Notes: a model not told the origin generated them from the sequence alone. A stretch of DNA of 64,000 nt from an uncultured bacterium (GCA_963805015.1 CAWDSL010000012.1:1712-65711); one strand, 5' to 3'. Positions 12,329 through 54,578 are shown, counted from the first letter of the stretch. Translations and numbers: made by a program.

Positions 12329-12445
12329 AATTCGGGGACACAATACCTATTCACCAATTTAATTGGGGGACCTGGTCCATTCTTAAAATAGGTGAATAGG
12401 TACTGTGTCCCCGATTTTTTAACAGGGGATTGTGTCCCCGGTTTT
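12329..12445. repeat. interspersed inverted-repeat element cluster (GGGGACA/TGTCCCC family)
   Basis: Left arm aattcggggacacaatacctattcacc (12329..12355). Right arm ggtgaataggtactgtgtccccgatttt (12391..12418) is its reverse complement with 2 differences (one in the core, one in the A/T flank). A degenerate unit lies between them (12362..12385), and a mini-palindrome ggggattgtgtcccc sits at 12425..12439. Confidence 0.8.
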
Positions 12446-12446
12446 C

Positions 12447-12455
12447 TGGTACAAT
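12447..12455 (+). promoter_or_regulatory. candidate extended -10 promoter element (TGgTACAAT)
   Basis: TGGTACAAT lies 27 nt upstream of ATG 12482. I found no convincing -35 element. Confidence 0.3.
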
Positions 12456-12481
12456 CGATGTCCGTCGCAGGGAGTGGAACA

Positions 12482-13006
12482 ATGAGCGAATACGGCGTCA
12501 TGGACAAGCTGGAGCGGCCCGAGATCGACGAGGGCGCCTGGGTGGCCCCCGGCGCGGTCCTCGTCGGGAAGATCGCCCTCCGCCGGGGCGCCAGCGTCTG
12601 GTACGGCTGCGTCCTGCGCTCCGACATGGCGGGCGCGGCGATCGTGATCGGCGAGGACTCTAACCTCCAGGACGGCTCGGTCGTCCACGTCGACGAGAAC
12701 CTCCCCTGCCTCATCGGGGCCCGGGTGACCATCGGCCACGGCGCCATCCTGCACGCCTGCGTCGTCGAGGACGAGGCCATGATCGCCATGGGCGCCACGG
12801 TCCTGTCCGGGGCGAGGATCGGCCGCGGCTCGGTCGTCGCCGCCGGGGCCGTCGTCCCCGAGGGCATGGACGTCCCGCCCGGGGTCATCGTCGCCGGCGT
12901 CCCGGCCAAGGTCCGCCGCGAAACGACCGAGGCCGACCGGGCCCGCCTCGAGCACGGCTGGAAGGCCTACGCCCGCCTCCGCGACCTCCATAGATCGGGG
13001 ACATGA
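12482..13006 (+). CDS. gamma-class carbonic anhydrase-like / hexapeptide-repeat (LbH) protein
   Basis: In ORF 12392..13006; ATG 12482 is preceded by GGGAG. The N-terminal extension in the track is a translation of the repeat element. Shows left-handed beta-helix hexapeptide periodicity and YrdA/PaaY-like blocks (SVWYGCVLRSD, IGEDSNLQDGSVVH, IGHGAILHAC). Confidence 0.8.
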   Translation: MSEYGVMDKLERPEIDEGAWVAPGAVLVGKIALRRGASVWYGCVLRSDMAGAAIVIGEDSNLQDGSVVHVDENLPCLIGARVTIGHGAILHACVVEDEAMIAMGATVLSGARIGRGSVVAAGAVVPEGMDVPPGVIVAGVPAKVRRETTEADRARLEHGWKAYARLRDLHRSGT

Positions 13007-13064
13007 TACCAATTTTCCAGGAGGAACATGAGGAAACTGGTGAATGGCACTGTCCCCCATTTTA
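12992..13064. repeat. interspersed inverted-repeat element copy overlapping two gene termini
   Basis: Arms are agatcggggacatgataccaattttcc (12992..13018) and ggtgaatggcactgtcccccatttta (13039..13064). The left arm supplies the last codons and stop of the upstream gene. The right arm covers the annotated HAD start. Confidence 0.75.
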
Positions 13065-13713
13065 GCGGTGATATTCGACCTCGACGGGACGCTGCTCGAC
13101 ACCATCGAGGACATCACCACGGCCTCCAACCGCGTCTACGAGCCCCGCGGACTGGCGCCCTGCAGCCTCGAAGAGATGAAAGCCCTCGTCGGCGACGGCG
13201 CCGAGGAGCTCATCCGCCGGGTGTTCGCCTCTCGCGGCAGGCCGGCGCCCGGCGATGCCGAGGTCACCGATATCCTGAAGGAATACCGCCGGGAGTACGA
13301 GGCGTGCTGGCGCTCCCACAGCCGCCCCTACGACGGCGTCCCCGAGCTGCTCGGCGAATTGAGCCCGCCGCGGCATCAGGACGGCCGTCCTCTCCAACAA
13401 GGCCCAGATGTTCACGGCCCTGATGGCCGAGGAGCTCCTGGCCCCGCACCGTTTCGACATCGTGCGCGGCGCCCGGCCCGGCGTCGCGCTCAAGCCCGAC
13501 CCGGCGCCGGCCCTGGCCCTCGCCGCCGACCTCGGGGTCTCCCCCGCCGACTGCGCCTTCGTCGGCGACACCAACGTCGACATGGCCACGGCCCGCTCGG
13601 CCGGCATGTTCGCCGTCGGGGCGCTCTGGGGCTTCCGCACCGCGGCCGAGCTCACCGCGAACGGCGCCGACGCCCTGATCGCCTCGCCGGACGATCTGCT
13701 CGATCTTATTTAA
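13044..13713 (+). CDS. HAD-superfamily phosphatase (phosphoglycolate phosphatase-like), frame break near 13362
   Basis: The N-terminus (IFDLDGTLLDT, motif I) is in ORF 13044..14651. It continues as RGIRTAVLSNKAQMFTALMAEELL..FVGDTNVDMATA in the frame of ORF 13408..13713. An in-frame GTG at 13068 is an alternative start. Confidence 0.8.
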
Positions 13714-13743
13714 AGGACGCGCGACGCGTCCCGGAGGTCGCCG

Positions 13744-14460: not shown

Positions 14461-14703
14461 CCCGCTCGCCCTTCCCCCCGGGGACACGTCCCGAGCCTCG
14501 AGGGGCAAGTCCCCCCTTCGGCGGCCTCCCTCTCGGGGGGCACTCTCTCCTGGGGTCAGGGGAGGTGAGGGACATTCCCCCCCCCTTTCACCCCCAGCGG
14601 CTATGGACGCCCCATGGGGGTGGCTTAAAATCGGTGCGTCGAACGCGATAGCCGTGCTCAGCCGAGCGCCCTTCGCGTATCGATAGGATAGAAAAGAGGG
14701 CGC

Positions 14704-15075: not shown

Positions 15076-15086
15076 AGGAGGTCCCC

Positions 15087-16397: not shown

Positions 16398-16415
16398 CCC
16401 CAGCGATCGAAGCCG

Positions 16416-16450
16416 AAGGGGCTGTTCCCAGCGGGAACAGCCCCTTTTTA
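16416..16450. terminator. bidirectional Rho-independent terminator
   Basis: The sequence aaGGGGCTGTTCCCagcGGGAACAGCCCCtttttat forms a perfect 12-bp GC-rich stem with a 3-nt loop and a T-run. It lies between convergent genes. Confidence 0.8.
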
Positions 16451-16454
16451 TCTC

Positions 16455-17664: not shown

Positions 17665-17705
17665 GCCTGCCCTCCTGTGGATTTCGGGCCCATTTTATTC
17701 CGGAT

Positions 17706-17898
17706 AATTCGGGGACACAATACCTATTCACCAATTAAAATGGGGGACATGATACCTATTTCCGATTTATTGCCATGCCCGGCGAGGTTAGAGGGAGCTT
17801 AAATGGGAAATAGGTATCATGTCCCCCATTTTTTGATTCGCGCCCAAACCCGGGGATGACGAAAGAAAATTGGAAACGGGTATCATGTCCCCCATTTT
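17706..17898. repeat. interspersed inverted-repeat element cluster (4 units)
   Basis: Unit A at 17706..17732 is identical to 12329..12355, and the identity extends to 31 nt. Unit B aaaatgggggacatgatacctatttcc (17737..17763) has a perfect reverse complement at 17806..17832. A third copy on the minus strand at 17872..17898 has 2 changes. Confidence 0.85.
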
Positions 17899-18005
17899 CG
17901 CGGTATGATTAATTTTCCCCAGGGGGATTTTTTTCGCTGGCCGGCTGTATCAAAAAAGAGCGCGGCTGAGCCGACTAATTTACGAGTCCGATCCGGGAGG
18001 AACGC

Positions 18006-21000
18006 ATGACCAGCCAGGAGCCGAATATGGAAACACGCGACGCCGAAAACGCCCGGAAGAGCAAGGACCGCCCATAGCCGTATTGGCCGTCCTCCTGGCC
18101 GTCCTCGGCGCGGGGCTCTACGCCGTCGTCGCCGATAACTCCTGCCCGCTCGCCGCGGGCCCCGCTAACGCGGGACTCGTCGCTAGCGATCCCGGAGCCG
18201 CGGGCCCCGCTGACGCGGGACTCGTCGCTGGCCCGATCCGGAACCGCGTCGCCCCAAGCTTCCGCCCAGTCCGCCAAGGCCGCCCGCGAGGCCGTCGATA
18301 AACTCGTCAACGAACAGAAGTTCGAGGCCGCGGCCGCTGAGTGCGCCCGGATCCGCGAAGAGGCCCGCAAGTCGCACGCCGTCCCCCTCTGGACCTGGGC
18401 CCTGATCAAGGAAGGCCAGCTCCGCTCGGCCCTCCACGGCTACGAGACCGCCGTCCGCTTCTTCAAGGAACAGCCCTGGCCGGACTCCCCCGTCGAGCGC
18501 GACATGCTCGACCTCTTCTACGCCCAGTCGCTCGTCACCTACTACCGGGCCTACTCCTGGGAGATCAACACCCGCGAGAAGGTCGAGGCCAAGGGCCCGA
18601 TCGACCTCAAGTCCTGGACGCGCGACCAGATCTTCGACGAGGCCTGGCAGTCGCTCCTCCGCGTCTGGAAGGACCGCGACCGCCTGGCCAACCACAAGGC
18701 CGTCCAATACCCCGACTTCTGGAGCGCCGGCGACTACCCCGCCGGCGTCCGCGACAATCTCCGCGACGGTGTCGTCTACCTCCTCGCGCAACTCCTCGGC
18801 GACACCTCCTTCTGGACGCCGCGCCAGTCGAACGAGACCTGGCTCCTCGACCTCGCCAAGATCCTCGCGAGCGCCGGCAAGACCAGCTCCGCCGACGCCG
18901 CCGCCGTCCTCGCCGACGCCTCCCGCCACCCCGTCGAAAGGATCGCCGCCCTTCTCGGCGAGCACGAGTCCTGGAGCCGCCGCAACGAGCGCCCCGCCGC
19001 CGCCCTCGAAGCCCGCTTCGAGCTCGTCCAAGCCCTCCACGAAGCGTTCAGCGACGAGGACGGCCGGGCCCTCCTCCGCAAGCACCTGACCGCTTTCCTC
19101 GCCGCCAACCGCAAGAACTCCTGGTGGGCCGTCGGGCAAGCCCTCCTGGCCGAGTACACCCGCTCCGAGGACGCCCCGGACGCCCTCGTCCGGGCCCGCA
19201 AGATCGCCCTCGAGGGCGTCGAGCGCTTCCCGGACACTCCCGGCGGCGACCGCTGCCGGCACATCGTCGCCTCGATCGAGGCGCCCGATTATTCCTGGAA
19301 GCCATGCGCCTCGACGCGCCCGGCCGCCGCTCCGTCCGCCTCACGCACCGCAACTTGGATCGCGTCTTTTTCCGCGCCTACGCCCTCGACCTCGAGGCCG
19401 AGGTCAAGGCGGCCAAAGACTACAACCTCTTCCCGCAGGGCGACGAAGCTCGCCGCTTGGTCACCGAGCGCAAGCCCGACGCCGCGTGGAAGACCGACCT
19501 CGCCCCTACGCCGGATTACCGCGACCACCGGACCTACGCCAACCTCCCCGACACCCTGGCGCCGAGCGCTCTATCTCGTCGTCGCCTCGGCCCGGGAGGA
19601 TTTCGCCGAAGCCGGCAATCAGACGATCGGCGCCGGCGTCATCGTCGGCGACCTCGTCCTAGTCAAGCGCGAGAACGCCGGGCCCGTCGCCGGCGCCGCC
19701 GGATCCGGCGGAGGGATGGAAGCCCTTGTCCTCTCCGGCGCTACGGGCCGGCCCGTCGCCGGCGTCACGGTCGACCTCTACGCCTACAACTGGCGCCGCG
19801 GCCACACTAAACTCGAGTCCAAGACGACCGACGCGCAAGGCCGCGTCTTCTTCGCTCCGCGCGGCCGTGGCGGCTCGTTCTTTGTTATCGCCAAGAAAGG
19901 CCGCGACGTGGTCATCGACACTTCCGGCTTCAACCTCGAAAGGGATAGCGACCTCAGCGACGACCAGGCCGCGCTCGTCTACACCGACCGCTCCATCTAC
20001 CGCCCCGGCCAGAAGATCTACTGGAAGGTCCTGGCCTATAAGGGCCGCTACGACCTCGGCCGATTCTCACCCGAGGCCAACCGCCCAGTCTCCGTCCGGC
20101 TCGAGGACATCAACAATGAGCCCGTGGCCGAAGCCACCGTCACGACGAACGCCTTCGGCACGGCCAGCGGCGAATTCGTCATCCCGGCCGCCGGGCGGCC
20201 CCTCGGGGCTTGGAGCCTGGTGGTCTCGCCCGACGGCGAAGCCGACATCCGCGTCGAGGAGTACAAACGGCCGACCTTCGAAGTCTCGGTCAAGGACCCG
20301 GAAAAGCCCCTGCGACTCAACAAGCCCGCTTCCCTCAAGGGCGAAGCCCGCTACTACTTCGGCCTGCCCGTCACGGGCGGCGAAGCCGATCTGGCAGGTC
20401 CGGCGCGAGCCCGTCTACCCGAGATGGTGGTGGTGGTGGGGCGACGGCGGCGGCTCCCGCAGCCAAAAGATCGCCGGCGGCCGGGCCAAGATCGACGCCG
20501 ACGGCGCCTTCGCCGTCGCGTTCACTCCGATCGCCGACGAGAAGAAGGACGGCGGCGCGTCGTCGGGCCTGACCTACCGCTACACGCTCTCGGTCGACGT
20601 CACGGACGAGGGCGGCGAGACCCGCTCCGCCGAGCGCTCGTTCCGCCTCGGCTTCGTCAGCGTCGAGGCCAGGGCCGCGTCGGAGACCGAGTTCCTGACC
20701 GCGGATTCCAAACCCAAGTTCACCGTGTTGCGCACCGATCTCAACGGCACGCCGAAGGCCGGCAAGGGCGCGTATCGCGTCGTCCGGCTCGTCCAGCCGG
20801 AGAAGACCCTCCTCCCCGCCGACCAGCCTCTCCCCGTCCGGCCGGGCACGGCCGAGGACCGCCTCTATCCGCCGACCCCCGGCGACCTCCTCCGGGCCCG
20901 CTGGGAAACGGTGGACCCCGCGACCATCGTCCGGATGTGGAAGGAAGGCGCGGAAGCGGCCAAGGGCGCCGTCGAACATGACGCCAAGGGCGTCGCCTCG

Positions 21001-24000
21001 ATCTCGCTTCCCGCGCTCGGCGCCGGGGCCTATCGCCTGCTCTACGAGACCAAGGACGACTTCGGGGCCGTCTGCAAGGACAGCCTCGATTTCCTGGTCG
21101 CAGGCGGTGCCAAGCCCGCCTTCAAGCTGCCGCTCCTCCTCAAAGCGGAGAAGGGCGTCGTGCCGGTCGGCGGCAAGGCCCGCATTCTCCTCGACAGCGG
21201 CTGGAGCGGCCAGCCCGTCCTCTTCGAGACGTTCAAGGGCGGCACGCTCTGGGAACGGCGCTGGCTCGAGGCCGGCAAGGACAGCGGCATCGTCGAGATC
21301 CCGGTCGGCGAGGACCTGCGGGGCGGGTTCGGCGTCCGGCTGACGGCCGTCCGCGACCACCAGTTCATGAGCGAGGAAGCGCTCGTCTTCGTCCCCTGGG
21401 ACAACAAGGAGCTCGGCGTTTCGTTCGCGACGTTCCGGGACAAGCTCACGCCCGGCGGCCGCGAGACCTGGCGCGTCACGGTCAAGACCCCGGCCGGCAA
21501 ACCGGCCGAAAAGGGCGCGGCCGAGCTCCTGGCCTACATGTACGACCGCAGCCTCGACATCTTCGCTCCGCACCGGCCGCCGCGCCGATCTCGGGGCTCT
21601 ATCCCTACCGCGCCGGCACGGAGGCGTGGGACCCGGTCCTGGGCACGGCCGAGATCATGCTCTCCTACGGCGACGGCTGGCACCACATCCCCGGCTATGT
21701 CACGTTCCGCGCGGACGAGCTCTTCTCGCTCGGCGGCTACGGCATCGGCGGGCCAGGGCGGCGCTACAAGGGCGGGATCGTCGGCGGCGTGCTCGGAGGC
21801 GTCGAGCGGGCCGACGCGGTGGTCGAGGCCGCCGCGCCGATGATCGATGTCAAGATGACTCAGGTGGCCGGCAAGGCGCCCAAAGAGGAGGCCCTTAACG
21901 AACAAGTGACGATCATCGAGCGCGGCGATCAGGGCCCCGCCCTGCGCTCGAATTTCTCCGAGACCGCCTTCTGGCAGCCGCATCTTCTGACCGGGGCCGA
22001 CGGCACGGCCACCATCGAGTTCACCGTGCCCGATTCGGTCACCGGCTGGCGCGTCTTCGTCCACGGCGTCACCCGCGACCTGGCCGGCGGCACGCTCGAG
22101 GCCGAGGCCAAGTCGGTCAAGGACCTCATGGTCCGGCCCTACCTGCCGCGCTTCTTCCGCGAGGGCGACCAGGCCGAGCTCAAGGTCGTCGTCAACAACG
22201 CTGGCGAAAAGGAAGCTTCGGGCGAGGTCGCGCTCGAGATCACCGATCCCGCGACGGGCGAGAACCTGGCCCCGGCCTTCGGGCTGCCGGCCTCGGTCCC
22301 GCCGCGCCCGTTCACGGTCGCCGCCGGCGGCGGAGCGACCGTCGTCTTCCCGTTGGCCGCGCCGGCCCGCGTGGGCACCGTGGCCTTCAAGGTCACGGCC
22401 AAGTCGGGCGCGCTCTCCGACGGCGAGCTGCGGCCGCTCCCGGTCCTGCCGGGCCGGATGCACCTCGTCCAGTCGCGCTTCGCCACGCTTAAAGAAGGAA
22501 AGACGCGCGAGCTCCGGTTCGAGGACATGGCCAAGTCCGGCGACCCGACGCTCCTCCACGAGCAGCTGGTCGTCACCGTCGACGCCCAGCTCTTCTACGG
22601 CCTGCTCGAAGCCCTGCCCTACCTCGTCAATTACCCCTACGAGTGCACCGAGCAGACCCTCAACCGCTTCCTTTCGACGGGCATCCTCACGAGCCTCTAC
22701 GCCAAATATCCCTCGGTCGGGCGCATGGCCCAGGAGATGAGCAAGCGCGAGACGGTCTACGAGTCGTTCGACGCGGCCGACGCCAACCGCAAGATGGCCC
22801 TCGAGGAGACGCCCTGGCTGCAGGAGGCGCAGGGCGGCAAGACCGACGGCCTCGACGTCGCCAAGGTCCTCGATCCGCGGGTGGCCCGGGCACAGCGGGA
22901 GTCGTCGCTGGCCAAGCTCCTCAAGGCCCAGACCTCGCTCGGGGCCTTCCCCTGGTGGGCCGGCGGGCCGCCGTCGCCCTACATGACCCTCTACATCGTC
23001 CACGGCTTCTCCAAGGCGCTCGAGTTCGGCGTCGACGTGCCGAAGGACGCCGTGGTCAAGGCCTTCGCCTACCTCCATCGCCATTACCTCGACGAGGTCG
23101 TGGCCGAGATGATGTCCCACGACATAGGCTGGGAGTTCGTCACGTTCCTCGGCTATACGCTCTCGAACTTCCCCGACGCCTCGTGGACGGGCGGCGTCTT
23201 CACCGACGCCGAACGGAAGCAGATGCTCGACTTCTCGTTCAAGCACTGGAAGGACCACGCCCCTTATCTCAAGGGCTATCTGGCGCTGACGCTCAAGCGG
23301 GCGAACCGCCCCAAGGACGCGTCGCTCGTCTGGGCCAGCGTCATGGACAGCGCCAAGACGACCGAGGACGGCGGCACGAGCTGGGCGCCCGAGGACCGCG
23401 GCTGGCTGTGGTACAACGACACCATCGAGACCCACGCCTTCGCCCTGCGGACGCTCATGGAGCTCCAGCCGGCCGACAAGCGCGGCGAGGGGCTCGTCCA
23501 GTGGCTCTTCCTCAACAAGAAGCTCAACCACTGGAAGTCCACCCGGGCCACGTCCGAGGTCCTCTACTCGGTGGCCTGGTACCTGAACAAGACCGCGGCC
23601 CTCGGCGCGCGCGAGACGGTCACGGCCGAGACCTGCGGCCAGACGACGACGTTCACCTTCGAGCCCGACAAGTACACGGGCAAGAAGAACCAGCTGGTCG
23701 TCCCCGGGACGAAGCTCGGCCCGGAGTGCGCGACGGTCAAGGTGACCAAGGGCGGCAAGGGCCTGGCCTTCGCCAGCGCCACCTGGCACTTCTCGACCGA
23801 CCGGATGCCCGAGAAGGGCGACGGCGACCTGTTCTCGGTCGAACGGACCTATTTCAAGCGCGAGAAGAAGGGCGAGGAAGTCGTGCTGAAGCCGCTCGCC
23901 GAGGGCACGCCTCTCGCCGTGGGCGACGAGATCGAGGTCCAGCTCTCGATCCGGGCCAAGCACCAGGCCGAGTACGTCCACCTGAGGGACCCGCGGCCGT

Positions 24001-24248
24001 CGGGATGCGAGCCGGTGGCGCTGACCTCGGGCTACAAATGGGACCTGGGCCTCGGCCGCTACGAGGAGATCCGGGACAGCGGCACGAACTTCTTCGTCGA
24101 GTGGCTGCCCGAGGGCCAGTACACGCTGAAGCACCGCATCCGCTGCACGATGGCCGGGACGTTCAAGGCCGCGCCGGCGACCCTGCAGTCGATGTACGCG
24201 CCGGAGTTCGCGGCCTATTCGGCGGGGACGCTGATCACGATCAAGTAA
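18006..24248 (+). CDS. alpha-2-macroglobulin family lipoprotein (~2080 aa) with CxEQ thioester motif, about 6 frame breaks
   Basis: ATG 18006 is preceded by GGAGG. A signal/anchor (AVLAVLLAVLGAGLYAVVADNSC) lies in the next frame. The body is spread over ORFs 18504..20981, 18341..19810, 19726..21843 and 21657..24248, with frame switches near 18070, 18245, 19290, 19565, 20385 and 21578. MG-domain-like repeats are present, together with YPYECTEQTLNRF (thioester-type CxEQ) and a conserved receptor-binding-like C-terminus. Confidence 0.85.
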
Positions 24249-24263
24249 CGAATCGGTGAGCGG

Positions 24264-24367
24264 AAAATCGGGGACATGATCCCATTTCTCCGTGAAATTG
24301 GATCGGGTCCCCTGATATCCCCTTCGAAAAGAAATCGGTGATTCAGGTATTGCTGTCCCCGATTTTC
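24264..24367. repeat. interspersed inverted-repeat element copy
   Basis: Arms are gaaaatcggggacatgatcccatttctcc (24264..24292) and ggtgattcaggtattgctgtccccgatttt (24338..24367). A degenerate core atcgggtcccctgat lies at 24302..24316. Confidence 0.75.
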
Positions 24368-24369
24368 AA

Positions 24370-24398
24370 TTGACACCCGCGCGCCGCCGATCTACCAT
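24370..24398 (+). promoter_or_regulatory. predicted sigma70-type promoter, -10 only 9 nt from the ATG
   Basis: TTGACA (24370..24375), a 17-nt spacer, then TACCAT (24393..24398). The ATG is at 24408 with no Shine-Dalgarno sequence in between. Confidence 0.45.
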
Positions 24399-26053: not shown

Positions 26054-27298
26054 ATGATGACCCGCAGACAGTTCGTCGGGAACGCGGCCGGCCTGGCCGG
26101 CGGCGTCGCCCTGCTCGGCGGCTCGTGGGCCTGCCGCGGCGCGAAGACCGCGGCCGCCGCGAAGAGCCGGGTCGTCTCGGTCGCCGCCGAGGACATGCTC
26201 GCCGACCTCGACTACAACCCGGCGGCCGTCCACCGGGCGTTCGAGACCGGGCTCAAGGAGCTCACGGGCGAGAAGTCGCTCGCCGGCGCCTGGTCCTCCC
26301 TCGTCTCGCCCGACGACGTCGTGGGCATCAAGATCAACTGCATCGGCGCGCCGCGGATCTCGTCCTCGCTCGCCTCCATCAACGAGACGATCGCCGGGCT
26401 CAAGAGCGCGGGCGTCAAGGAGAACGCCGTCGTCGTCTGGGACCGGATGGACCGGGACTTCCGCCGGACGGGCCTGGCCATCAACCGGGGCGCCGAGGGC
26501 GTCCGGGTCATGGGCTGCTCGGCCGAGTGGGAGGGCGTGGTGCCCTGGGTCTCGGGCTACGACCCGAAGGTCTTCGTGTCGTTCGACGACGGGACCCTGA
26601 AGAAGTTCCGCGAGCTCGTCGGGCGCGGCTTCACCCGGGAGGGCTCGCACCGCGAGATCTTCAACTCCGTCTCCTGGCTCTGGACGCTGGCCCAGCAGGG
26701 GAACGCCGAGGCCCGCCGCTACGAACAGGAGCTGCGCCGGCTCTACACGGACTACGACGACCGCGAGGGCATCAAGAGGATCGCCGAGGAGGTGGCCAAC
26801 GCCTTCGACGGCGTCGCCATCGAGAACGAGGAGCGGTCCTGCTTCGCCGACATCGTGACCAAGGACATCACCAAGCTGGTCAACATCGCCGTTCTCAAGC
26901 ACAACGAGGACAGCGGCGTCACCTGGGCGGCCAAGAACATCGCCCTGGGGGTGACGACGAACAAGGTCCGCTTCCACATCGACTTCTGCGAGAAGGCCAT
27001 CCCGGAGATCCTGGCCGCGCCGTGCATCAGGGACAAGACCGTGCTCCACATCGGCGAGGCCGCCAAGATCTCGACGGTCAGCGTGGCCGGGGCCCAGATC
27101 GCCCGCGACAACCGCATCTTCTTCAGCCGCGACCCCGTGGCCATGGACCGCATCGGCCTCGACATCCTCGAGGAGAAGCGGGCGGCCCAGGGGCTCGGAT
27201 CGATCCGCGACATCGCGACGCACGTCGCGGCCTGCGCGCGGAAGGGGCTGGGCACGGACGATCTGGCGCGGATCGACCTCCGCGAGCTCCGGGCCTAG
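26054..27298 (+). CDS. DUF362-like protein with twin-arginine (Tat) signal
   Basis: In ORF 25622..27298, starting at ATG 26054. The N-terminus MMTRRQFVGNAAGLAGGVALLGG is Tat-like. The body resembles DUF362 proteins (VVGIKINCIG..), but the family call is from memory only. Confidence 0.55.
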   Translation: MMTRRQFVGNAAGLAGGVALLGGSWACRGAKTAAAAKSRVVSVAAEDMLADLDYNPAAVHRAFETGLKELTGEKSLAGAWSSLVSPDDVVGIKINCIGAPRISSSLASINETIAGLKSAGVKENAVVVWDRMDRDFRRTGLAINRGAEGVRVMGCSAEWEGVVPWVSGYDPKVFVSFDDGTLKKFRELVGRGFTREGSHREIFNSVSWLWTLAQQGNAEARRYEQELRRLYTDYDDREGIKRIAEEVANAFDGVAIENEERSCFADIVTKDITKLVNIAVLKHNEDSGVTWAAKNIALGVTTNKVRFHIDFCEKAIPEILAAPCIRDKTVLHIGEAAKISTVSVAGAQIARDNRIFFSRDPVAMDRIGLDILEEKRAAQGLGSIRDIATHVAACARKGLGTDDLARIDLRELRA

Positions 27299-27324
27299 GT
27301 CCGGAGCCATCCGGTTTCCGTTGC

Positions 27325-27825
27325 CTATTTGGACTGCAGATAGTTAACGAGAAAATGCAGGATCTGCCAGCTTTGATCAGGTTGCCGCTGCCAAACGATG
27401 CCACATCTTGCAAGAGCACGAACGGGCGGCTGACTACCCTCTTGTTCCAGCTCATTGATCGTAACGAACGTGTAGGCCTTCGAGCCGACGACATCACAAT
27501 GAATGAGAGTGAATGTCATCTCGAGAACCTTCATTGCCGGCATCCCTTTTGCGAATAGCTCTTGAAGGCTATCACGGCCCCTGAGCTCGGGCATGTCGGG
27601 GTAGATCAGAACGGCATCCTTCGTGAACCAACCGGCACATTTGTCTGGCTGCAAGGTCTTGACAGTCTCGATATAGTCGGTCAAGAGGCGCGTGCAGAGT
27701 TCCTTTGCAGCAACGGCATTCATGGCCACTTCACCCTTCTGTCGGCAGCCAATGCCGAAAACAAGGAGTGATACCATGAAGACGGCGGTTAAAAAGACAG
27801 GGCGGCATCTCGACGTTCTATTCAT
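27325..27825 (-). CDS. NTF2-like (DUF4440/SnoaL-like) lipoprotein
   Basis: ORF 27325..27858. Start taken at ATG 27825, 9 nt after GGAGG. Lipobox LLVFGIGC. NTF2-like length and pattern, ending ..CGIVWQRQPDQSWQILHFLVN. Confidence 0.6.
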   Translation of the reverse strand: MNRTSRCRPVFLTAVFMVSLLVFGIGCRQKGEVAMNAVAAKELCTRLLTDYIETVKTLQPDKCAGWFTKDAVLIYPDMPELRGRDSLQELFAKGMPAMKVLEMTFTLIHCDVVGSKAYTFVTINELEQEGSQPPVRALARCGIVWQRQPDQSWQILHFLVNYLQSK

Positions 27826-27860
27826 TGGCATATCCTCCCCCCTTGGGTCCAAAATCATCC

Positions 27861-28406
27861 CTATTTCTTTATGGCCTCTTTAGGCTTGAGCTCCATGCCG
27901 AGCTGCTGCATCCATCCCATAACGTCAAATTCTTCCTTGGCGTTAGCGATCTTTCCGTCGATGACCTGGCCGATCCACATTCCGCTGGCCTCAACCTTCT
28001 TTCCGGTAGGGGGGATCCCTTGGTACTCTCCGGTATGTGTGCCTCCTGTGACAAATCGCACCATGACCTTGTCGACGTGGGCGACCATTTCTTTGATATC
28101 GTAACGCATATCGGGGAATCCGGCCCAAAGCATCTTGGAGAATCCCTCTTCCTCTTCGCGGGTAAGGCCCTTAGGATTATTCGAAGGGAAGTGCCAGCCG
28201 TAATCGGGAGCATACAGTTCTTGATAAACTCCGGTGTTCTTCTTGTTCAGTTCGTCAAAAACCTTCGTAACAAGGGCCATGTTCTGCTGCTCGATCGCCG
28301 CCTGGGCCTTATACTTTTCCAGCTCCGCCAAGGCCGTCTTGTCCTGGCAAGCGATAGTGAAACAAAACAGAACGATCAACGGAACCGCACAAAGATACTT
28401 TTTCAT
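27861..28406 (-). CDS. SnoaL-like (predicted ester cyclase family) lipoprotein, paralog 1
   Basis: ORF 27861..28421; ATG 28406 is preceded by AAGGAGG. Lipobox FCFTIAC. Family pattern GTHTGEYQGIPPTGKKVE..DGKI..EEFDVMGWMQQLGMELKP. Confidence 0.7.
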   Translation of the reverse strand: MKKYLCAVPLIVLFCFTIACQDKTALAELEKYKAQAAIEQQNMALVTKVFDELNKKNTGVYQELYAPDYGWHFPSNNPKGLTREEEEGFSKMLWAGFPDMRYDIKEMVAHVDKVMVRFVTGGTHTGEYQGIPPTGKKVEASGMWIGQVIDGKIANAKEEFDVMGWMQQLGMELKPKEAIKK

Positions 28407-28436
28407 TTTCCCCTCCTTCATAGCCCGTGCCGAATT

Positions 28437-28976
28437 CTATTTCTTTGCCGCTATCGGCTTAAGCTCCATGCCGAGCTGTTGATACAGGCCCAAGCTATCC
28501 TCAATCACATACGCCCGCTTGATTTTCCCGTTAACGACGACGAAGGAGTATAGGCCCGGCTCTATCACTTTCGTTTCAGTGGGGGGTATTCCTTCGTACG
28601 GAGCTTTATGGGTCCCTTTCTGGACAATCTTCATAACCACGTTGTTCCCTTCTGCGACAGTGTCTTCAATCGTATGCTGCCAATCGGGGAACGCCGAATA
28701 ATGAGCCTTGATGACCTCAATGAGAGTATCGACGTTCACTGGTTCAGGTAAACCCGGCGCACTGAGCGCAAAATCAGCGGCGCCTAGCTCCTTGATCATC
28801 GCGAAATCGTTCCTGTCGATGGCGGCGATTAAATTGCGGGCCACGTCCTTATTCTGGTCCTCAAGCTTTGCCTGGGCTTTGAACTTCTCCAGCTCCGCCA
28901 TTGCCGCCTTGTCCTGGCAGGCGATAGTGAAACAGAACACAAGGACCAACGGAACGACATAAAGGCATTTTTTCAT
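28437..28976 (-). CDS. SnoaL-like lipoprotein, paralog 2
   Basis: A 179-aa ORF with AAGGAGGGGG upstream. It has the same lipobox (FCFTIAC), the block GTHKAPYEGIPPTETKV and the tail QQLGMELKP. Confidence 0.7.
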   Translation of the reverse strand: MKKCLYVVPLVLVFCFTIACQDKAAMAELEKFKAQAKLEDQNKDVARNLIAAIDRNDFAMIKELGAADFALSAPGLPEPVNVDTLIEVIKAHYSAFPDWQHTIEDTVAEGNNVVMKIVQKGTHKAPYEGIPPTETKVIEPGLYSFVVVNGKIKRAYVIEDSLGLYQQLGMELKPIAAKK

Positions 28977-29007
28977 TTTCCCCCTCCTTCATAACCCGCG
29001 CTGATTT

Positions 29008-29558
29008 TTATTTCTTGAGCTCTTTCGGCCTGAGCTCCATGCCGAGCTGCTCAAGTAAGCCCATACCGTCAAACTCTTCCCACATCTCCACGACCTTTCC
29101 ATTCTTGATCCGGAAGACGAGAATTCCACTTCGGCCTTAAACTTGTTCCCAGTCGGCGGGATCCCAAGAAATTCTCCTTGGTGAATTCCGCTCATCACAT
29201 ATCGGCTTGTGACCATGTCTCCATCAGCGCATGGTTCGACCAAGTGGATCGTAAAATCGGAGACACCTCGATGGATCATCTTTATATGCTCTACAAATTC
29301 TGCCAGGGAACGCATAGCAATAGTTGTCGACGGTGTATATTCAATGAAATTCGGAGAGACCAATTCTTCGACAACGGCAAGGTCCGCTGCGCCTATAGCT
29401 GCCATGACACGCCCTACGAGTGCCTTATTCTGCTGCTCGATCGCCGTTTGGGCCCTGTACTCCTCCAGCTCGACGATCGCCGCCTTGTCCCGACAAGCAA
29501 TCGAGTAACATAAGCACAACACGAGCCCCGACAAAGCCAGAAGGGAACCTTTTCTCAT
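29008..29558 (-). CDS. SnoaL-like lipoprotein, paralog 3, frame break near 29125
   Basis: ORF 28989..29558 (lipobox CYSIAC; GIHQGEFLGIPPTGNKFKAEV). The conserved tail ILVFRIKNGKVVEMWEEFDGMGLLEQLGMELRPKELKK* is in another frame, with its stop at 29010..29008. An upstream ATG at 29571 with a better RBS is out of frame across an A-run. Confidence 0.65.
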
Positions 29559-29610
29559 GCTGCTTTTTCATGATCCCCCCTTATTAGAATCTATCAGGAA
29601 CCCGGTCCGT

Positions 29611-31546
29611 TCACACCTCAAAATGCTCCCACTCGTATTTCACCCGCTCCATGAGCTTCTTGAATCGCTCCTCGCCGCGGATGCTTGCCAGAAACGGGTC
29701 GTGTTCCATGAGGAATGGATAGTGAATAAAACCCCAATTGACTGCGTTTTCCATCAATTCGATAGCTGCGCCTGTCTCGCCTAGCAAGGCATAGCTCTCC
29801 GCCAACCAAATGGGGAATCCCTCGTCGTCCCTAACTAAATTCATGAATTCTGGTGTGACCGTTTGAAGAGCTATCTATTTTCTTGTTCTCTAAAGCATAT
29901 CGGTGAAAAGAAGCGAGGCCAGCCCAGACGGTCCCCGGAGCCTTCTTTTCGATAAGGGCCGAAAGATCGTGAGCTTGCCCCAGATGTTGCGCATAACTGA
30001 AAGCCCGAGAGAGCCAGAACTGAATAAAGGGATTTTGCTCATCCATCCGGGTGGCCTTATCGAGCTCCTTGATCCCATCCTCGAATTTGCCGTCAAAGAC
30101 CTCGACACTTCCGCTCAAGAAATAAGTCAGCGAATTCAGCGGGTCGATCTTGAGGAGTATATCTACGAGCTGCCTTGCCTCCGAAATCCTTCCAGAATGG
30201 ACATAGACCCAGGTCAGCCACAATAGAGCATCTGGATGATTCGGATCTATGGCCAGCGATCTCTTGAATTCTCTTACCGCCTGCTGGGGATTCCTTCTTT
30301 TTCTTTGGATCATTCCCCTCAGGTAGTGTCCATAAGCAGATTCGGGATTCAGGGAAAAGACTTTTTGAATGAATTGCTCAGCTTCAACAAGAACACTCTC
30401 ATCCTTTCTAATGCCGGAATCGATGTACATAAGATTTATGGAACTCAAATCTGCATATAGGATTTCGTTATCTCCAATGAGATCGAGTCCCTTCTTGGCA
30501 AGCCGAGAGGCACGCTCCAATCCTTGTTCTGTCGCTTGCCAATATTCATGGCGCGCCATGATATGAAGATTATAGGCTTCAGGGCTGGCGATGGGCCTTG
30601 CGACCATCTGCTTTTTCTCTTCCGGCGTCAGCTTCAGTTTCAGGGCATTGCCAATGGAGCGGGAAACCTTGTCTTGAATATCGAAAATGTCATCAAGAGT
30701 CCCGTCGTACTTTTCGGCCCAGAGATGGGCATCATTCAAGGCATCGATCAGCTGGGCGGTGATCCTCAGGCTGTTCCCCGCCTTGCGTACGCTCCCCTCC
30801 AGAACGTAGCGTACGTTGACGTCTCTCGCGATCTCCGGGATCATCTTCTTCGTGCCCTTGAATGTCATCGCCGAGCTTCGCGAGATGACCAGGAGGCTTC
30901 GGACATGAGACAGGTCGGTGATGATCTCCTCGGTCATGCCGTCGCAGAAGTACTCCTGGTCTTTCTGTGGGCTGAGGTCGGCGAAGGGGAGGACGATGAT
31001 GGATTTATCGGGGACGGCCAGGGTGGGAGCAAGGGGCTCGGCAGCAGCCTTGACGCGCTCTATGGACGATGAGGACGGGGCAGCCGCCCATTGCGACAGC
31101 TTGAGGATCATCCAGACGATCCCCAGACTCAGGGCGACGATCCCGATCAACAGCGCCTTGCCGGTGATGCCCGCGATCTGGAGGACGAGGTTCAGATCTG
31201 TGGCGGCGGTGGCCAGAATGATAAGGGGGACCAGGAGGACCTCGATCTTGACGTTTCCCGGCCGTTTCTCCGAGCTCCGGAACCATCGCCAGACCAGGGT
31301 CGCGAGGAGAGCCCCGATGACCGAAACGACCGTGATATCGATCGCCTCGTCAGGGAACTTGTAGTGGCCGACAAGGAGCCGCTCGACGACCTCGACGAGC
31401 AGCCAGCCGCCTGCGATGAACGCGGCCAGGGTCTCGATAATACGGCGCCGTCTGAGCTTGGTGAGAATAGCCCTGAGCCCGGATCCCTTGACCTCGGGGA
31501 GCGCATCGGGGCTCCGCAGAGGTGTCTTCCCCTCGCCTTCCGGCAT
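29611..31546 (-). CDS. membrane protein with TolB-N/FlgO-like domain and TPR repeats, frame break near 29878
   Basis: ORF 29831..31546 has TM helices, then KSIIVLPFADLSPQKDQEYFCDGMTEEIITDL.. and TPR-like repeats. It continues as ..IALQTVTPEFMNLVRDDEGFPIWLAESYALLGE.. in ORF 29611..29844. The junction is at a T4 run (29878-29881). Confidence 0.7.
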
Positions 31547-37870: not shown

Positions 37871-37910
37871 TTAATGGGGACAAATACTCCGGGCGCAGGT
37901 CCCCGATCTT
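37871..37910. repeat. short GGGGACA/GTCCCC element copy inside coding sequence
   Basis: The sequence ttaatggggacaaatactccgggcgcaggtccccgatctt lies within a locally AT-richer patch that encodes KNKNKIGDLRPEYLSPLK on the minus strand. Confidence 0.55.
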
Positions 37911-39471: not shown

Positions 39472-39526
39472 GCTATTCCCGCTTGGTTATTGTACCCGAT
39501 ATTGACAAGACAGGACCAGAACAAGA

Positions 39527-39624
39527 AAGGACCAGGTCTTCACGCCGAACAGCAAGATAGGACCAGGTCTTCACGCTGAATCGGCGTACAGACAATACGC
39601 GTGAAGACCAGGTCCTATCTTGCT
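39527..39624. repeat. 26-bp-arm near-perfect inverted repeat plus upstream direct half-copy
   Basis: agcaagataggaccaggtcttcacgc (39551..39576), a 22-nt loop, then gcgtgaagaccaggtcctatcttgct (39599..39624), with a single central mismatch. A direct partial copy aggaccaggtcttcacgc lies at 39529..39546. Confidence 0.85.
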
Positions 39625-39638
39625 CGCCATCTCCCCGA

Positions 39639-40166: not shown

Positions 40167-40261
40167 GGGCACGCCCCTTCCGGAGGAACCTCACGGTTCC
40201 CGAAATAGCGCCCCACTTCTCTAGGATATCGATGCCGGCTCTCGGCCGGCCCATCCGCGTG

Positions 40262-41462: not shown

Positions 41463-41515
41463 TGGGGACTCCTTGACCTCATTATACAACATATATTGGT
41501 CGGTCAAGCATTATT

Positions 41516-42364: not shown

Positions 42365-42367
42365 CGG

Positions 42368-44662
42368 CTAGGACTTATGGTACCCGTGGTAATAGTCTTT
42401 GTAATAATACGCCCCGTGCCGCGGCACGCTGACGTTGTTGATGATGACGCCGATCGTCCGGACCTTGAGCAGGTCCAGCTTCTCGCGGGCCTTCTTCAGC
42501 GCCTCGCGCGAGGTCGTGTCGCCGTGGACGACGAGCACCAGGCCGTCGACCTTGGCCCCCAGCACCAGCGCGTCGCTGATCTCGAGCATGGGCGGCAGGT
42601 CGAACAGGACGTGGTCGCACTCCTCGCTCATCATCCGGATGAAGCGGGTCATCTTGTCCGAGCCCAGGAGCTCGGCCGGGTTGGGCGGCACGGGCCCGGC
42701 GTTGATCAGGAATAGGTTGGGGATCACCGTCGACTTGACGACCGTCTTGAGCTCGATCGAGTCGGTCAGGTAGGTGGTCAGCCCGAAGGTGTTCTTGACC
42801 TTGAACAGCCGGTGCTGGCGGGGCCGCCTCAGGTCGGCGTCGACGATGAGCACGGTCTTCCCGGACTGGGCCAGGGTGATGGCCAGGTTGGCCACCGTCA
42901 CCGTCTTCCCCTCCCCGGGCAGGGCCGAGGTCACGGCCACGGTCTTGACGGGGCTATCGGCCGAGGACAGCAGGAGCGCCGTGCGCAGGGACCGGTAGCT
43001 CTCGGCCAGCCGCGAGTTCGGGAAGTAGTGCGGCACGAGCTCGATGCTGCCCGGGCGCTCGGCCGGCTCGATCTCCGCGACGAAGGGCGCGGCCGCGACG
43101 GCCGGCGCCGCTTGGTCCGTTCCCGCCGCACCCGCCGTATCCGCCCCGGTCGACGTCCCCGCCTCGAGGCGGGCCGGCTCCTTGCCGCTCTTGAGCCTCC
43201 GCCCGTAGCTATAGTTCTTGTCGGCGCCCGCCAGGCTGAACTTGGGCACGACGCCCAGGGTCGGCAGCCCCGCGTAGCGCTCGACGTCCTCGCTCGTCTT
43301 GACGCTGTTGTCGAGGAAGTCGAACAGGAACGCCAGCCCCACTCCCCCGCCGAGACCGAGCAGGAGCGCCAGGATGAGGTTCCTCTTCTTGTTCGGGCTC
43401 GAGGGCCGCACCGGCACCCGGGCCCGGTCGACGACCCGGATATTGGACGTTCTCAAGCCCTTGAGCCGGGCCTCGACCCCCGTCTCGCTCTCGCGCCGCA
43501 GCAGCGAGTCGAGCAGGGTCTTCTTGTTCTGGATCTCGACCTTGAGCCCGTTATACAGCACGGCGCTCGAGTTCATCTTGAAGGCCGCGGTCTTCTGCTC
43601 GTTGAACTCGGACTCGAGCGACCGTTCCCGGTTGAGGGCCGTCTGGAATTCCGAGTAGGCCCCCTTGACCAGGTTCTGGGTCTCGTCGTCGAGCGACTTG
43701 CGGGCCGACTCCATCTCCACCTTCATCCGCTGCAGCTCGGGGTAATCGGGCTGGAAGCGCTCCTCCATCTTCTGGGTCTCGCGCTTGAGCCGGACGTAAT
43801 CCTCGCGCAGCCGCTGGATGAGCGGATTGTTGATGGCCTCGGGCACGTAATCCGCGCTGACGTTCTTGAGGCCGTTCCAGGTGGCCTGCTTCTGCGAGCG
43901 CTCGATCTGGGCCTCGGTCAGGGCCTTGTTGAGCTGGCTCAGGCGGTCGATGACCGTGGTCTCGTTGTCGCTCAGGGCGACGATGTTGGCCTCGGCCTCG
44001 AAGCCCTGGAGCTGGTTCTCCTTCTGCTCGATCTCGGTCTGCAGCCCCTTGATCTGCTCCGAGAGGAAGGTGGTCGCCTGCTCGGTCGCGGCGTACTTCA
44101 TGTTGATGTTGAGGTCGATGAAGGCGGCCGCGAGATCGTTGACGCAGTCGGCGGCCAGCTTGGGGTCCCGGGCCTCGAAGGCGACGTCGACGAGCCGGGT
44201 CAGCCGCACGGGCCTGACCGAGAGCCGCCCCAGGAAGCCGTCGATGAGCCCCTCGCGGAAGACGTGGTCGGTCGGGTCGACGGGCTTCGTCCGTTTCTCC
44301 GGCCGGCCCACGAACTCGGGGTTCTCATAGAGCTTGAGCCTCTCGATGACCGTGTCGGCCAGGCCCCGCCCGCTCAGCAGCCGGTACTGGGTCTGGTAGA
44401 AATCGTCCCGCATCGACTCGATCTGCAGGACCTGCTCGAACGACAGGATATTGGGCTCCTTCTCGATGAGGAGCTGGGATTTGGCGGTGTAGACGGGCTT
44501 CTGGATGAAGGTCCAGAACGCCCCGAGGATGAAAACGCCCAGGGTCACCGCGATGACGGTGCTCTTGCGGCGCAGGAGCCTGTCCCAGTAATCGCGAAGG
44601 TCGATCTGCTGAGGCTCCGCGACCTCGTAATCCGCCAGCTGTATCTCGTTCTGATTCTTCAT
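42368..44662 (-). CDS. wzc: polysaccharide co-polymerase / BY-kinase (Wzc/GumC-like)
   Basis: ORF 42368..44719. Start taken at ATG 44662 (MKNQNEIQL). Has a Wzz-type N-terminal TM, a long coiled periplasmic domain and a second TM. Walker A is SALPGEGKT, and the C-terminal Tyr cluster is GAYYYKDYYHGY. Confidence 0.85.
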   Translation of the reverse strand: MKNQNEIQLADYEVAEPQQIDLRDYWDRLLRRKSTVIAVTLGVFILGAFWTFIQKPVYTAKSQLLIEKEPNILSFEQVLQIESMRDDFYQTQYRLLSGRGLADTVIERLKLYENPEFVGRPEKRTKPVDPTDHVFREGLIDGFLGRLSVRPVRLTRLVDVAFEARDPKLAADCVNDLAAAFIDLNINMKYAATEQATTFLSEQIKGLQTEIEQKENQLQGFEAEANIVALSDNETTVIDRLSQLNKALTEAQIERSQKQATWNGLKNVSADYVPEAINNPLIQRLREDYVRLKRETQKMEERFQPDYPELQRMKVEMESARKSLDDETQNLVKGAYSEFQTALNRERSLESEFNEQKTAAFKMNSSAVLYNGLKVEIQNKKTLLDSLLRRESETGVEARLKGLRTSNIRVVDRARVPVRPSSPNKKRNLILALLLGLGGGVGLAFLFDFLDNSVKTSEDVERYAGLPTLGVVPKFSLAGADKNYSYGRRLKSGKEPARLEAGTSTGADTAGAAGTDQAAPAVAAAPFVAEIEPAERPGSIELVPHYFPNSRLAESYRSLRTALLLSSADSPVKTVAVTSALPGEGKTVTVANLAITLAQSGKTVLIVDADLRRPRQHRLFKVKNTFGLTTYLTDSIELKTVVKSTVIPNLFLINAGPVPPNPAELLGSDKMTRFIRMMSEECDHVLFDLPPMLEISDALVLGAKVDGLVLVVHGDTTSREALKKAREKLDLLKVRTIGVIINNVSVPRHGAYYYKDYYHGYHKS

Positions 44663-44672
44663 CTTATTCCCT

Positions 44673-44691
44673 GGGGACATGCAATGTCCCC
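44673..44691. repeat. perfect palindrome GGGGACAT-gca-ATGTCCCC between wza and wzc
   Basis: 8-bp arms and a 3-nt loop, with the same core as the interspersed family. It lies in the 50-nt gap between the wza stop (44713) and the wzc ATG (44662). Confidence 0.8.
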
Positions 44692-44712
44692 CATCTTCTC
44701 TTCTCTTTCTCT

Positions 44713-45602
44713 TTACCAAAAACTCTCCGGCACATACACCACATCGCCCTCTTGCAGCACGATGTCCTTCTTCCGGCCCTTGATGATGTCCTTCAGGTTG
44801 ACCTTGATCTTCTGCTCTTTGCCGGCCTTATCCTTCCGGGTGATGGTGATGGCGCTCTCTTTGGCTCCCTCGGCCAGGCCGCCCGCGTCGGCGATGGCCT
44901 GGAAGAGCGTGATCCCCTCGGACAGCTTGGCCTTGACCGCCCCGGGCCTCGTGACCCGGCCCATGACGAACACCCGGATCTCCCGGTCGACCGGCACGTT
45001 GATGACGTCGTTCGGCTCGACGGGGACGTTTAGCGTTTGGTTGCCGTTGACGATCAGGTCCTTGAGGTCGATGGAGAGGGTCGAGGTCTTCCCGTCCGGC
45101 CCCTCGCGCAGGATGAAGACCTCGTTGCCGGCCGTCTCGCTGAAGCCGCCGGCCATGGAGATGATCTGGAGCAGGTTCTTGCGGCCGACGAGCTCGTAGC
45201 TCCCGGCGTTCTCGACCGCCCCGATGACGGCCACCTGCTGGTTCTTGTACTCCTTGATGAAGATCGTCACCTGGGGGTTCTTGACGTACTTGGCCTGGAG
45301 GAGGCCCGTGAGCTTCTGGACGACGCCTTCCTGGGTCAGGCCCTCGACGACGACGCGCCCGAGGAGCGGCAGGGTGATCGACCCGTCCTCGGACACCCGG
45401 ACGACCTGGCTGAGCTCTTCCACCTGGAAGACCTTGAGCTCGAGCAGATCCCCCGGGCCGATCCGGTAGGCCCTGACGAACGCGTCCTTGGCATCCTGCG
45501 GGGTGATCGCCGGCGGGGTCTTGGCCTGGGGCACGGCCTGGGAGCCGCAAGGCCGGCAACCGCCAGCACGGCGGACATGGCGAACAGGGCAATCTTCCTC
45601 AT
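44713..45602 (-). CDS. wza: polysaccharide export protein (Wza-like; Poly_export + SLBB), frame break near 45545
   Basis: The body is in ORF 44713..45705 (PGDLLELKVFQVEELSQ.., SLBB-like repeats). The signal peptide MRKIALFAMSAVLAVAG is in the frame of ORF 45336..45647, starting at ATG 45602 with GGAGAGG upstream. Confidence 0.8.
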
Positions 45603-45634
45603 CGTCCTCTCCAAGTAAATCGGCGAAATCGCTT

Positions 45635-45687
45635 GAAATCGGGACATGTAACAATTCTCCTGAATCGGTACGTGTCCCCTGATTTCG
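45635..45687. repeat. interspersed inverted-repeat element copy (arms abutting)
   Basis: Arms are gaaatcgggacatgtaacaattctcc (45635..45660) and tgaatcggtacgtgtcccctgatttcg (45661..45687). Confidence 0.65.
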
Positions 45688-54576: not shown

Positions 54577-54578
54577 GG

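Follow-up and report, generated by a model that had tools for sequence, protein, structure and literature searches.

The 64,000-nucleotide stretch of DNA considered here (GCA_963805015.1 CAWDSL010000012.1:1712-65711, from an uncultured bacterium; "the window" denotes this whole stretch at its full length) carries between its genes a family of short inverted repeats, the units of which are most probably REPIN-like, i.e., non-autonomous repeats of a REP-associated tyrosine transposase (RAYT), where REP stands for repetitive extragenic palindrome and REPIN for a REP doublet forming a hairpin. The RAYT in question would be of the TIRYT kind, also termed TnpA-Y1 subclass 2.1, and its gene is bracketed by inverted units in 17 of the 17 loci that encode it. 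As a kind, neither the element nor the system is new: the family falls into an established class of miniature mobile DNA of bacteria, as one of the RAYT/TIRYT-associated repeats, among which it is unusually abundant and has a very broad phylogenetic range.

Repeat units, their pairing and their hosts

The repeat family in the window is genuine. With at most one mismatch, the motif AAAATSGGGGACA occurs 10 times against 0.09 expected, and with at most three mismatches, the motif GGGGACAYRRTACCTATT occurs 8 times against 0.04; a profile hidden Markov model (HMM), trained on 194 distinct units taken from other genomes and then run on the window, yields 11 units at four sites for a chance expectation below 0.1. 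The consensus unit of about 32-34 nt reads (T/A)AAAT[G/C]GGGGACA[TG/CA]ATACCTATT[T/C]CC(C)(A/T)ATTT and occurs in two variants, 'CA' (GGGGACAC) and 'TG' (GGGGACAT), with about 0.2 units per kb of the window. Besides the four sites (A to D in Table 1), a decayed pair at 45.6 kb makes a fifth (E), and one palindrome is doubtful. The first-pass annotation, which had been made from the sequence alone, was thus right to report a recurrent family of ~27-nt inverted repeats, but its nine or more sites reduce to five clear ones and one doubtful one. Most of the copies that it listed as full are supported by the HMM; the pair at 45635-45687 is visible and folds, but is too decayed for the HMM to reach. 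Among the four degenerate cores that it proposed, those at 7812-7830, 14480-14492 and 37871-37910 have no HMM support, whereas the one at 44673-44691 is a real palindrome of uncertain membership.

At every pair in the window, the units converge (GGGGACA-> ... <-TGTCCCC), as the same annotation had stated. When 185,579 species-representative genomes were scanned with TSGGGGACAYRRTACCTATT, at least 110 stretches matched (genome loci L001-L110; metagenome loci are L119-L238), and in 734 kb of other-genome loci, drawn from the matches listed, 284 units make up 95 convergent pairs, 94 unpaired units, 27 same-strand neighbours and three divergent neighbours. Doublets of the Elusimicrobia type are tight 44-nt palindromes consisting of the arms and a loop of 2-4 nt; those of the Aminicenantes type have arms of 27-28 nt that either abut (55-58 nt in total) or lie on both sides of a variable stretch of 10-80 nt. 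When folded as DNA and compared with shuffles, the pairs at A, C and D form strong hairpins and E a lesser one, as had been predicted, but B folds poorly (Table 1). The perfect 27-bp inverted repeat noticed earlier at 17737/17832 is confirmed as the stem of the inner pair of C and, when extended, covers 33 nt at 97% complementarity. Single units, on the other hand, are no better folded than their shuffles (z = -0.98 and +0.09). Over the entire window, Rfam 15 gives zero matches at the gathering score, and below that threshold only look-alikes of plant microRNA precursors, which are generic long hairpins.

Some units depart from the usual inverted doublet. Head-to-tail arrays of three copies were seen in a Thermodesulfobacteriota metagenome-assembled genome (MAG) (L072, 4400-4479; 30-nt period) and downstream of the transposase gene in L062; a CRISPR-like array was considered and rejected because the spacing of the units, except in the L072 tandem, is irregular. 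In L030 (225-4331), the open reading frame (ORF) of a 1368-residue HrpA-like helicase continues through two units about 800 nt apart (...MGDMIPIS..., ...GIMSPI...), which may be in-frame intragenic copies, like those reported for some REPs.

The unit is present in more than 45 MAGs. Among the matches listed, the majority are Aminicenantes/Acidobacteriota MAGs, including some that are labelled 'Eubacteriales' yet are syntenic with Aminicenantes at 66-72% G+C; Aminicenantes are now placed in the phylum Acidobacteria. The other hosts are Elusimicrobia, Phycisphaerales (Planctomycetota), Desulfobacterota/Deltaproteobacteria, Abditibacterium (Abditibacteriota), Dehalococcoidia, Omnitrophota, and a few Proteobacteria, and because the G+C content of the host loci ranges from 41 to 72%, they do not represent a single organism under different labels. 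The window itself is syntenic with the MAGs CAZFZU01 and JBGSUG01 at 85-92% nucleotide identity, and its source is therefore an Aminicenantes-type bacterium. Beyond the match that seeded each locus, genome loci contain about 0.2 units per kb, and metagenome loci, beyond the seeding pair, about 0.04; among the 230 loci that were picked by the repeat, 9 contain the transposase gene. From these densities and this ratio, a genome may be estimated to contain some tens to a few hundred units, probably of the order of 10^2, and in Aminicenantes the copy number of the unit may reach the scale of REPINs.

The associated Y1 transposase and the class of the repeats

All-against-all clustering of the ORFs of the 110 loci listed brings out one unit-adjacent protein that recurs across phyla, as a cluster of 230-260 amino acids (aa) from four phyla, and tblastn extends the set to six genome loci. 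The protein, 215-260 aa in length, matches Pfam Y1_Tnp above cut-off; its best NCBIfam match is REP_Tyr_transpos, the REP-associated tyrosine transposase (NF047646), and in the PDB, its sole relative is E. coli TnpA-REP in complex with a REP hairpin (4ER8; Messing 2012), with which the HUH motif and the catalytic tyrosine align. In an alignment of 10 proteins (45-83% identity, 215-257 aa), CLMxNHVH, L[WF]QGRF and RY[VI]E[RL]NPVRA are invariant, and a C-terminal tail, TGRPxG...GR.L.P.K.GRK, is conserved. At E <= 1e-20, the database holds 4,507 homologues, the closest being 'transposase' entries of Aminicenantes.

The 17 loci that encode the transposase are L001, L003, L046, L050, L062, L075, L111, L114, L115, L117, L154, L160, L175 and L240-L243; eight were fetched via homologues (L111, L114, L115, L117, L240-L243), and L154, L160 and L175 are chance finds among the metagenome loci. 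In the usual layout, a + unit lies 55-100 nt upstream of the gene and a - unit overlaps its 3' end. In L075, for example, about 55 nt separate the end of the + unit from the ATG, and the - unit begins 8 nt past the stop. A GH42 glycosidase adjoins the gene in all nine Aminicenantes-type loci with called genes, in two local arrangements, and this conserved neighbourhood fits a single-copy, vertically inherited transposase gene. The search for a RAYT- or IS200-like transposase with ends matching the arms, suggested as a check in the first-pass annotation, was decisive, the bracketing holding in related and unrelated genomes alike; the annotation's comparison with REPs and bacterial interspersed mosaic elements was correct. 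A candidate full-length element, with convergent units 1.7-2.2 kb apart (L077, L030), was rejected, as ordinary genes lie inside (a hydrolase and a Lysine_decarbox-like gene).

The other mobile element named in that annotation was a miniature inverted-repeat transposable element (MITE), and the units might be classical MITEs if they were the terminal inverted repeats of deletion derivatives of a DDE insertion sequence. The long terminal inverted repeats, the variable interior, the size of 60-130 bp, the A/T-rich ends and the frequent TA at the boundaries are all in keeping with such an origin. However, 188 doublets, examined at every boundary offset, have no target-site duplication of 2-8 bp, a result that speaks against a DDE-type MITE and is expected of Y1 HUH transposition; moreover, the Y1 HUH enzyme is the only protein recurrently bracketed in 238 loci, and no cluster of DDE transposases appears. 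A blastn search of plasmids with the 17.7-kb cluster gives no match, and among viral contigs one doublet occurs on a single contig only, so the element is not phage-borne. Classical MITEs are thus an extremely improbable explanation. Elements such as Correia, ERIC and RUP resemble the family in being small and intergenic, with terminal inverted repeats and hairpin transcripts able to affect their neighbours, but they are derived from or mobilised by DDE enzymes and carry target-site duplications (TA for Correia), whereas here none is seen and the enzyme is a Y1 HUH protein.

The preferred assignment, to repeats of a RAYT of the TIRYT kind, agrees with two published descriptions. TIRtrons or TIRYTs (Di Nocera et al. 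2013, PMC3733652) are RAYT-like genes between inverted repeats with GGGGWSAS and without GTAG-tagged REPs; their best-defined group is from Acidobacteria, and some of these repeats make up families that are termed 'moderately abundant' and consist of dimers or clusters. Here too, inverted repeats instead of GTAG REPs flank a RAYT-like Y1 gene and form families of dimers or clusters, and the 'CA' variant fits the motif GGGG[AT][CG]A[CG], while the 'TG' variant deviates at its last position. The present family differs from those reported in being far more abundant and REPIN-like, and in that its unit, apart from the 8-nt motif, has over 20 further nt that hardly vary across several phyla. For Quentin et al. 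(2018), TIRYTs are the same as TnpA-Y1 subclass 2.1, corresponding to group 1 of Bertels (PMC6006769), which is characterised by NHVH, W[EQ]/FQ and YIELNP / Y[IV]HLNP at a median of ~238 aa (PMC6006769, Table 1); the transposase here has NHVH, [WF]Q, Y[IV]E[LR]NP and ~220-250 aa. Judged by motifs, length and repeats, it appears to match this subclass. The impression that the element was not a described one is correct for the unit, whose 14-mers do not occur in the literature searched, but not for the class, which has been described (PMC3733652) and discussed (PMC6006769).

The REPIN-RAYT systems of Pseudomonas and Enterobacteria (Bertels & Rainey 2011; Nunvar 2010; Ton-Hoang 2012; Messing 2012) likewise have extragenic inverted doublets that form hairpins, repeats that flank a single-copy, vertically inherited HUH/Tyr transposase, and orthologous sites that have long been occupied, and they too make no target-site duplication. 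Their repeats are species-specific, in contrast to the repeat sequence here, which is common to several phyla, and the transposase here comes from a different RAYT clade.

Several points weigh against the assignment. The unit has no 5' GT[AG]G tag, as the sequence outside its G-run is (T/A)AAAT[G/C], and taken singly it is not palindromic, which excludes it from the canonical REPs of the GTAG super-family. The transposase scores 52-66 bits with NF047646, below the equivalog cut-off of 80 bits, and Pfam at E <= 5 finds Y1_Tnp only and no helix-turn-helix (HTH) domain in the C-terminus, where similarity to Bac_DnaA_C, HTH_23 or HTH_28 is reported for subclass 2.1. Quentin et al. saw no REP-like sequences adjoining subclass 2.1 genes (PMC6006769), and for the flanking 16-mers of group 1, Bertels et al. 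(2017) counted only ~12 copies (PMC5581495), so that the abundance seen here departs from the published norm. By tblastn, the 64 kb of the window contain no transposase gene, and its presence in the source genome is extrapolated from relatives; window proteins looked up in the assembly collection have no exact counterpart there. The transposase of CAZFZU01 and JBGSUG01 is not among the 15 traceable NCBI-sourced homologues, which is not evidence of absence. Finally, the mobility of the family is presumptive, and arms that are kept around decaying centres (see below) could also mean selection for a host function.

A mechanism can be proposed by analogy with E. coli TnpA-REP and with IS200/IS608. 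In single-stranded DNA, each element, as two ~32-nt units inverted around a variable centre, would be able to form a long extruded hairpin. The putative cognate enzyme, the single-copy RAYT-type HUH/tyrosine (Y1) transposase whose own gene occupies a giant version of the inverted pair, would recognise, probably at the replication fork, single-stranded DNA in which the arm or arms are folded. As in E. coli TnpA-REP and IS608, it might then cleave near the A/T-rich foot via its tyrosine, rejoin the strand, and in this way move, copy or maintain whole doublets in trans. Effects on the host are also likely: a strong hairpin set between an A-run and a T-run could serve as a bidirectional terminator or as a stabiliser of mRNA ends, and adjacent genes would receive stop codons, and once a start codon, from the A/T-rich unit ends.

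Persistence, spacing and possible host functions

The copies persist at orthologous sites and also turn over. The spacer between the gamma-CA-like and HAD genes holds a doublet with diverged centres in five genomes (the window, L039, L004, L059 and L010), which is intact in the latter four and partly deleted in the window; in all five, its right arm encodes the N-terminus of the HAD protein (MSPILAV / MALSPILAV), provided that the upstream ATG is the true start, the alternative in the window being a GTG at 13068, nine codons downstream. The nrdJ/gamma-CA spacer holds a CA-type doublet in the window, a TG-type doublet in L039 and L059, both in L045, and none in L010. Similarly, L046 has six doublets of exactly 76 nt that have kept their arms while their centres diverged, and the 88-nt class, common among metagenome doublets, behaves likewise. 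Diverged centres, kept arms and changing site content together point to old copies with maintained arms and a REPIN-like turnover.

The decay of the centres around conserved arms is also what would be expected of hairpins selected by the host, as RNA or DNA, for use as bidirectional intrinsic terminators or as stabilisers of mRNA 3' ends, in which case the link to the transposase would be historical only. In each doublet, a G/C-rich stem base (GGGGGACA/TGTCCCCC) is set between AAAA(T) and (A)TTTT; many copies begin at or across a stop codon; and, among 156 classifiable sites, 28% lie between convergent genes, 24% between divergent genes and 47% between co-directional genes (background 24%, 21% and 56%, respectively). 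REPs, furthermore, are known to terminate transcription and to stabilise mRNA. However, two of the five sites in the window lie in divergent promoter regions, where a terminator would be senseless, site B lies within an apparent operon, and a terminator scan of the window flagged only a small partial hairpin at 12425-12439. Moreover, terminators are not conserved in sequence, so the near-identity of ~32 nt across phyla is left unexplained, as is the bracketing of the transposase gene. A purely host-selected hairpin is unlikely on these grounds, although a terminator or stabiliser role and the transposase link are not mutually exclusive.

The suggestion of the first-pass annotation that the units are a shared operator of a global regulator can be put more precisely as duplex half-sites, bound by such a regulator or by the C-terminal domain of the transposase, with both arms on the same face of the helix. 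The -35 box of nrdJ is 5 nt from doublet A, a TTGACA lies 2 nt past doublet D, and in the genome loci the arm-to-arm distances cluster at 44, 55-56, 65-67, 76-77, 85-87 and 108-109 nt, with a period of 10.4-10.9 nt (R 0.40-0.50, above all 2000 jitter nulls) that survives collapse to one value per length and MAG. The independent metagenome sample (58-88 nt only) reproduces this period weakly, with R = 0.25 at 10.8 nt, a best period of 5.9 nt and an off-phase peak at 69-70 nt; the window spacings of 61, 79, 84 and 91 are likewise out of phase, and the transposase has no detected HTH domain. Helical phasing was rejected, the length classes being explained as diverged descendants of a few master copies, to which most of the spacing pattern is attributed; recognition of duplex DNA by a dimer as the cause of a ~10.5-11-nt period is improbable. 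Furthermore, the distribution of the 156 sites is close to background, so there is no preference for promoter-bearing spacers, and this argues against an operator. An operator function is thus highly unlikely, and the earlier statement that the elements sit in promoter or leader regions does not hold either, since only two sites in the window are in divergent promoter regions and the remainder lie between co-directional genes. For the copy upstream of nrdJ (ACACAATA...), an NrdR box was rejected because the unit also adjoins unrelated genes and occurs in all types of spacer.

Taken as repeats of a TIRYT-type RAYT, the units tie the large and poorly understood subclass 2.1 (RAYT group 1), for which earlier links were sporadic, to a concrete and abundant DNA partner, and the conservation of the arm across phyla offers a handle for the biochemistry of DNA recognition by HUH/Tyr enzymes. 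With a likelihood that falls somewhat short of even, no REPIN-RAYT lineage known so far is as widely distributed as this one, given an arm of ~30 nt that is nearly letter-for-letter the same across phyla and a transposase at ~45-50% identity. If true, this would contradict the view that REPIN populations exist only in RAYT groups 2 and 3 and that REPs are lineage-specific, and it would supply a natural series for dissecting how Y1 enzymes read DNA. These matters are of interest mainly to REPIN/RAYT specialists. In more practical terms, the family accounts for the A/T-rich hairpin islands between the G+C-rich genes of Aminicenantes-type genomes, and its units can mislead gene calling through the stop, and possibly start, codons that they donate; they can also break short-read assemblies. 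Runs of N in MAG contigs start or stop exactly at repeats (L039 at ~5850-5950, L056, L060 and L006), and the repeats evidently break or confuse such assemblies.

Sites in the window and neighbouring features

Pfam agrees with the gene names given earlier for the neighbours of the repeats and identifies a class II ribonucleotide reductase, a hexapeptide/gamma-CA-like protein, HAD, DUF2961, alpha-2-macroglobulin (A2M), a beta-lactamase-family hydrolase, Wzc and Wza. After curation of the start codons, all copies in the window are intergenic, much as had been reported, except at the 3' end of the gamma-CA-like gene, the last five codons of which fall within unit 12991-13018, including its stop codon (TGA, 13004-13006), and possibly at the 5' end of the HAD gene.

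Table 1. Units, doublets and the doubtful palindrome in the window; folding is given as the folded span, its energy and z against shuffles, and E values are those of the profile HMM.
Feature	Position	Strand	HMM E value	Folding	Context and remarks
Doublet A, REPIN-like	12328..12418			12326-12420, -27.9 kcal/mol, z -9.75	Spacer of divergent nrdJ-like (-) and gamma-CA-like (+) genes; arms 32 nt, 91% complementary
A, left unit	12328-12362	+	1e-10		'CA' variant, TCGGGGACACAATACC
A, right unit	12384-12418	-	6e-9		'CA' variant, TCGGGGACACAATACC
Partial extra unit	12429..12446	-	0.17		AAAACCGGGGACACAATCCC, 1 mismatch; just outside doublet A; then extended -10-like TGGTACAAT
Doublet B, decayed	12991..13066			12990-13066, z -1.8 (weak)	Between gamma-CA-like and HAD genes
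B, left unit	12991-13018	+	1e-4		'TG' variant
B, right unit	13039-13066	-	0.28 (13051-13066)		Includes HAD ATG at 13044
Cluster C, nested double doublet	17702..17900			Entire cluster, doublet nested in doublet, -52.5 kcal/mol, z -7.3	Between DUF2961 gene (-) and alpha-2-macroglobulin genes (+)
C, outer left unit	17702-17737	+	3e-10		'CA' variant
C, inner left unit	17736-17772	+	5e-11	Inner pair, 17734-17835, -34.7 kcal/mol, z -11.7	
C, inner right unit	17799-17833	-	2e-11		
C, outer right unit	17879-17900	-	6e-5		'TG' variant
Doublet D	24262..24368			24260-24370, -24.5 kcal/mol, z -4.4	Between A2M C-terminal and beta-lactamase-family hydrolase genes, both +; sigma-70-like TTGACA-17-TACCAT at 24370-24398 directly after
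D, left unit	24262-24292	+	0.009 (24262-24280)		
D, right unit	24338-24368	-	0.09 (24345-24368)		
Doublet E, strongly decayed	45635..45687			45635-45687, -13.5 kcal/mol, z -3.7	33 nt upstream of wza-like start (ATG 45602, -), downstream of preceding - strand gene; recognisable by eye
Short palindrome GGGGACATGCAATGTCCCC	44673..44691		6	44673-44691, z -3.5	Between wza and wzc; 8-bp arms GGGGACAT/ATGTCCCC

The short palindrome between wza and wzc resembles the tight hairpins around the transposase of L117 and is possibly a copy that has collapsed or been reduced to a minimum. Close to doublet E, the wza-like gene (window 45540-45705) has its good ATG, which is followed by a signal peptide (MRKIALFAMSAVLAVAGLAAP), in another frame than the main ORF (44713-45705), a mismatch to be ascribed to a frameshift or else to an error in the assembly. 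Upstream of doublet D, the alpha-2-macroglobulin is split into at least two ORFs, 18504-20981 (MG2/bMG3) and 21657-24248 (A2M/bMG10), with an overlapping third ORF (19726-21843), and frameshifts within one large gene (18504-24248) may be the cause.

Two stretches of low G+C content (27000-31500 and 48000-64000; 34-58% versus ~68% elsewhere) adjoin the polysaccharide export genes and are probably horizontally acquired islands; no HMM-supported unit lies inside either of them. Next to doublet A, the leader of nrdJ contains a hairpin, TAATCCTAGCATTCCACTAGGATTA followed by ATTTTCC (12269-12293, -), between a promoter match at 12318-12290 and the start codon at 12257; it is nearly unchanged in L039, L045, L010 and L059, has no Rfam match, and may be an attenuator or a regulatory site.

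A second, unrelated family of hairpin repeats (GCGTGAAGACCAGGTCCTATCTTGCT, core GAAGACCWGGTCC) has three copies at 39519-39625, two of which are direct and one inverted, the inverted copy being 96% complementary over 26 nt. The same family occurs as inverted pairs in related MAGs (L014, 4528-4581; L045, 2125-2184; L132, 5576-5628), and a remnant of it, GGGGGACCTGGTCC, lies in the loop of doublet A (12366-12377).

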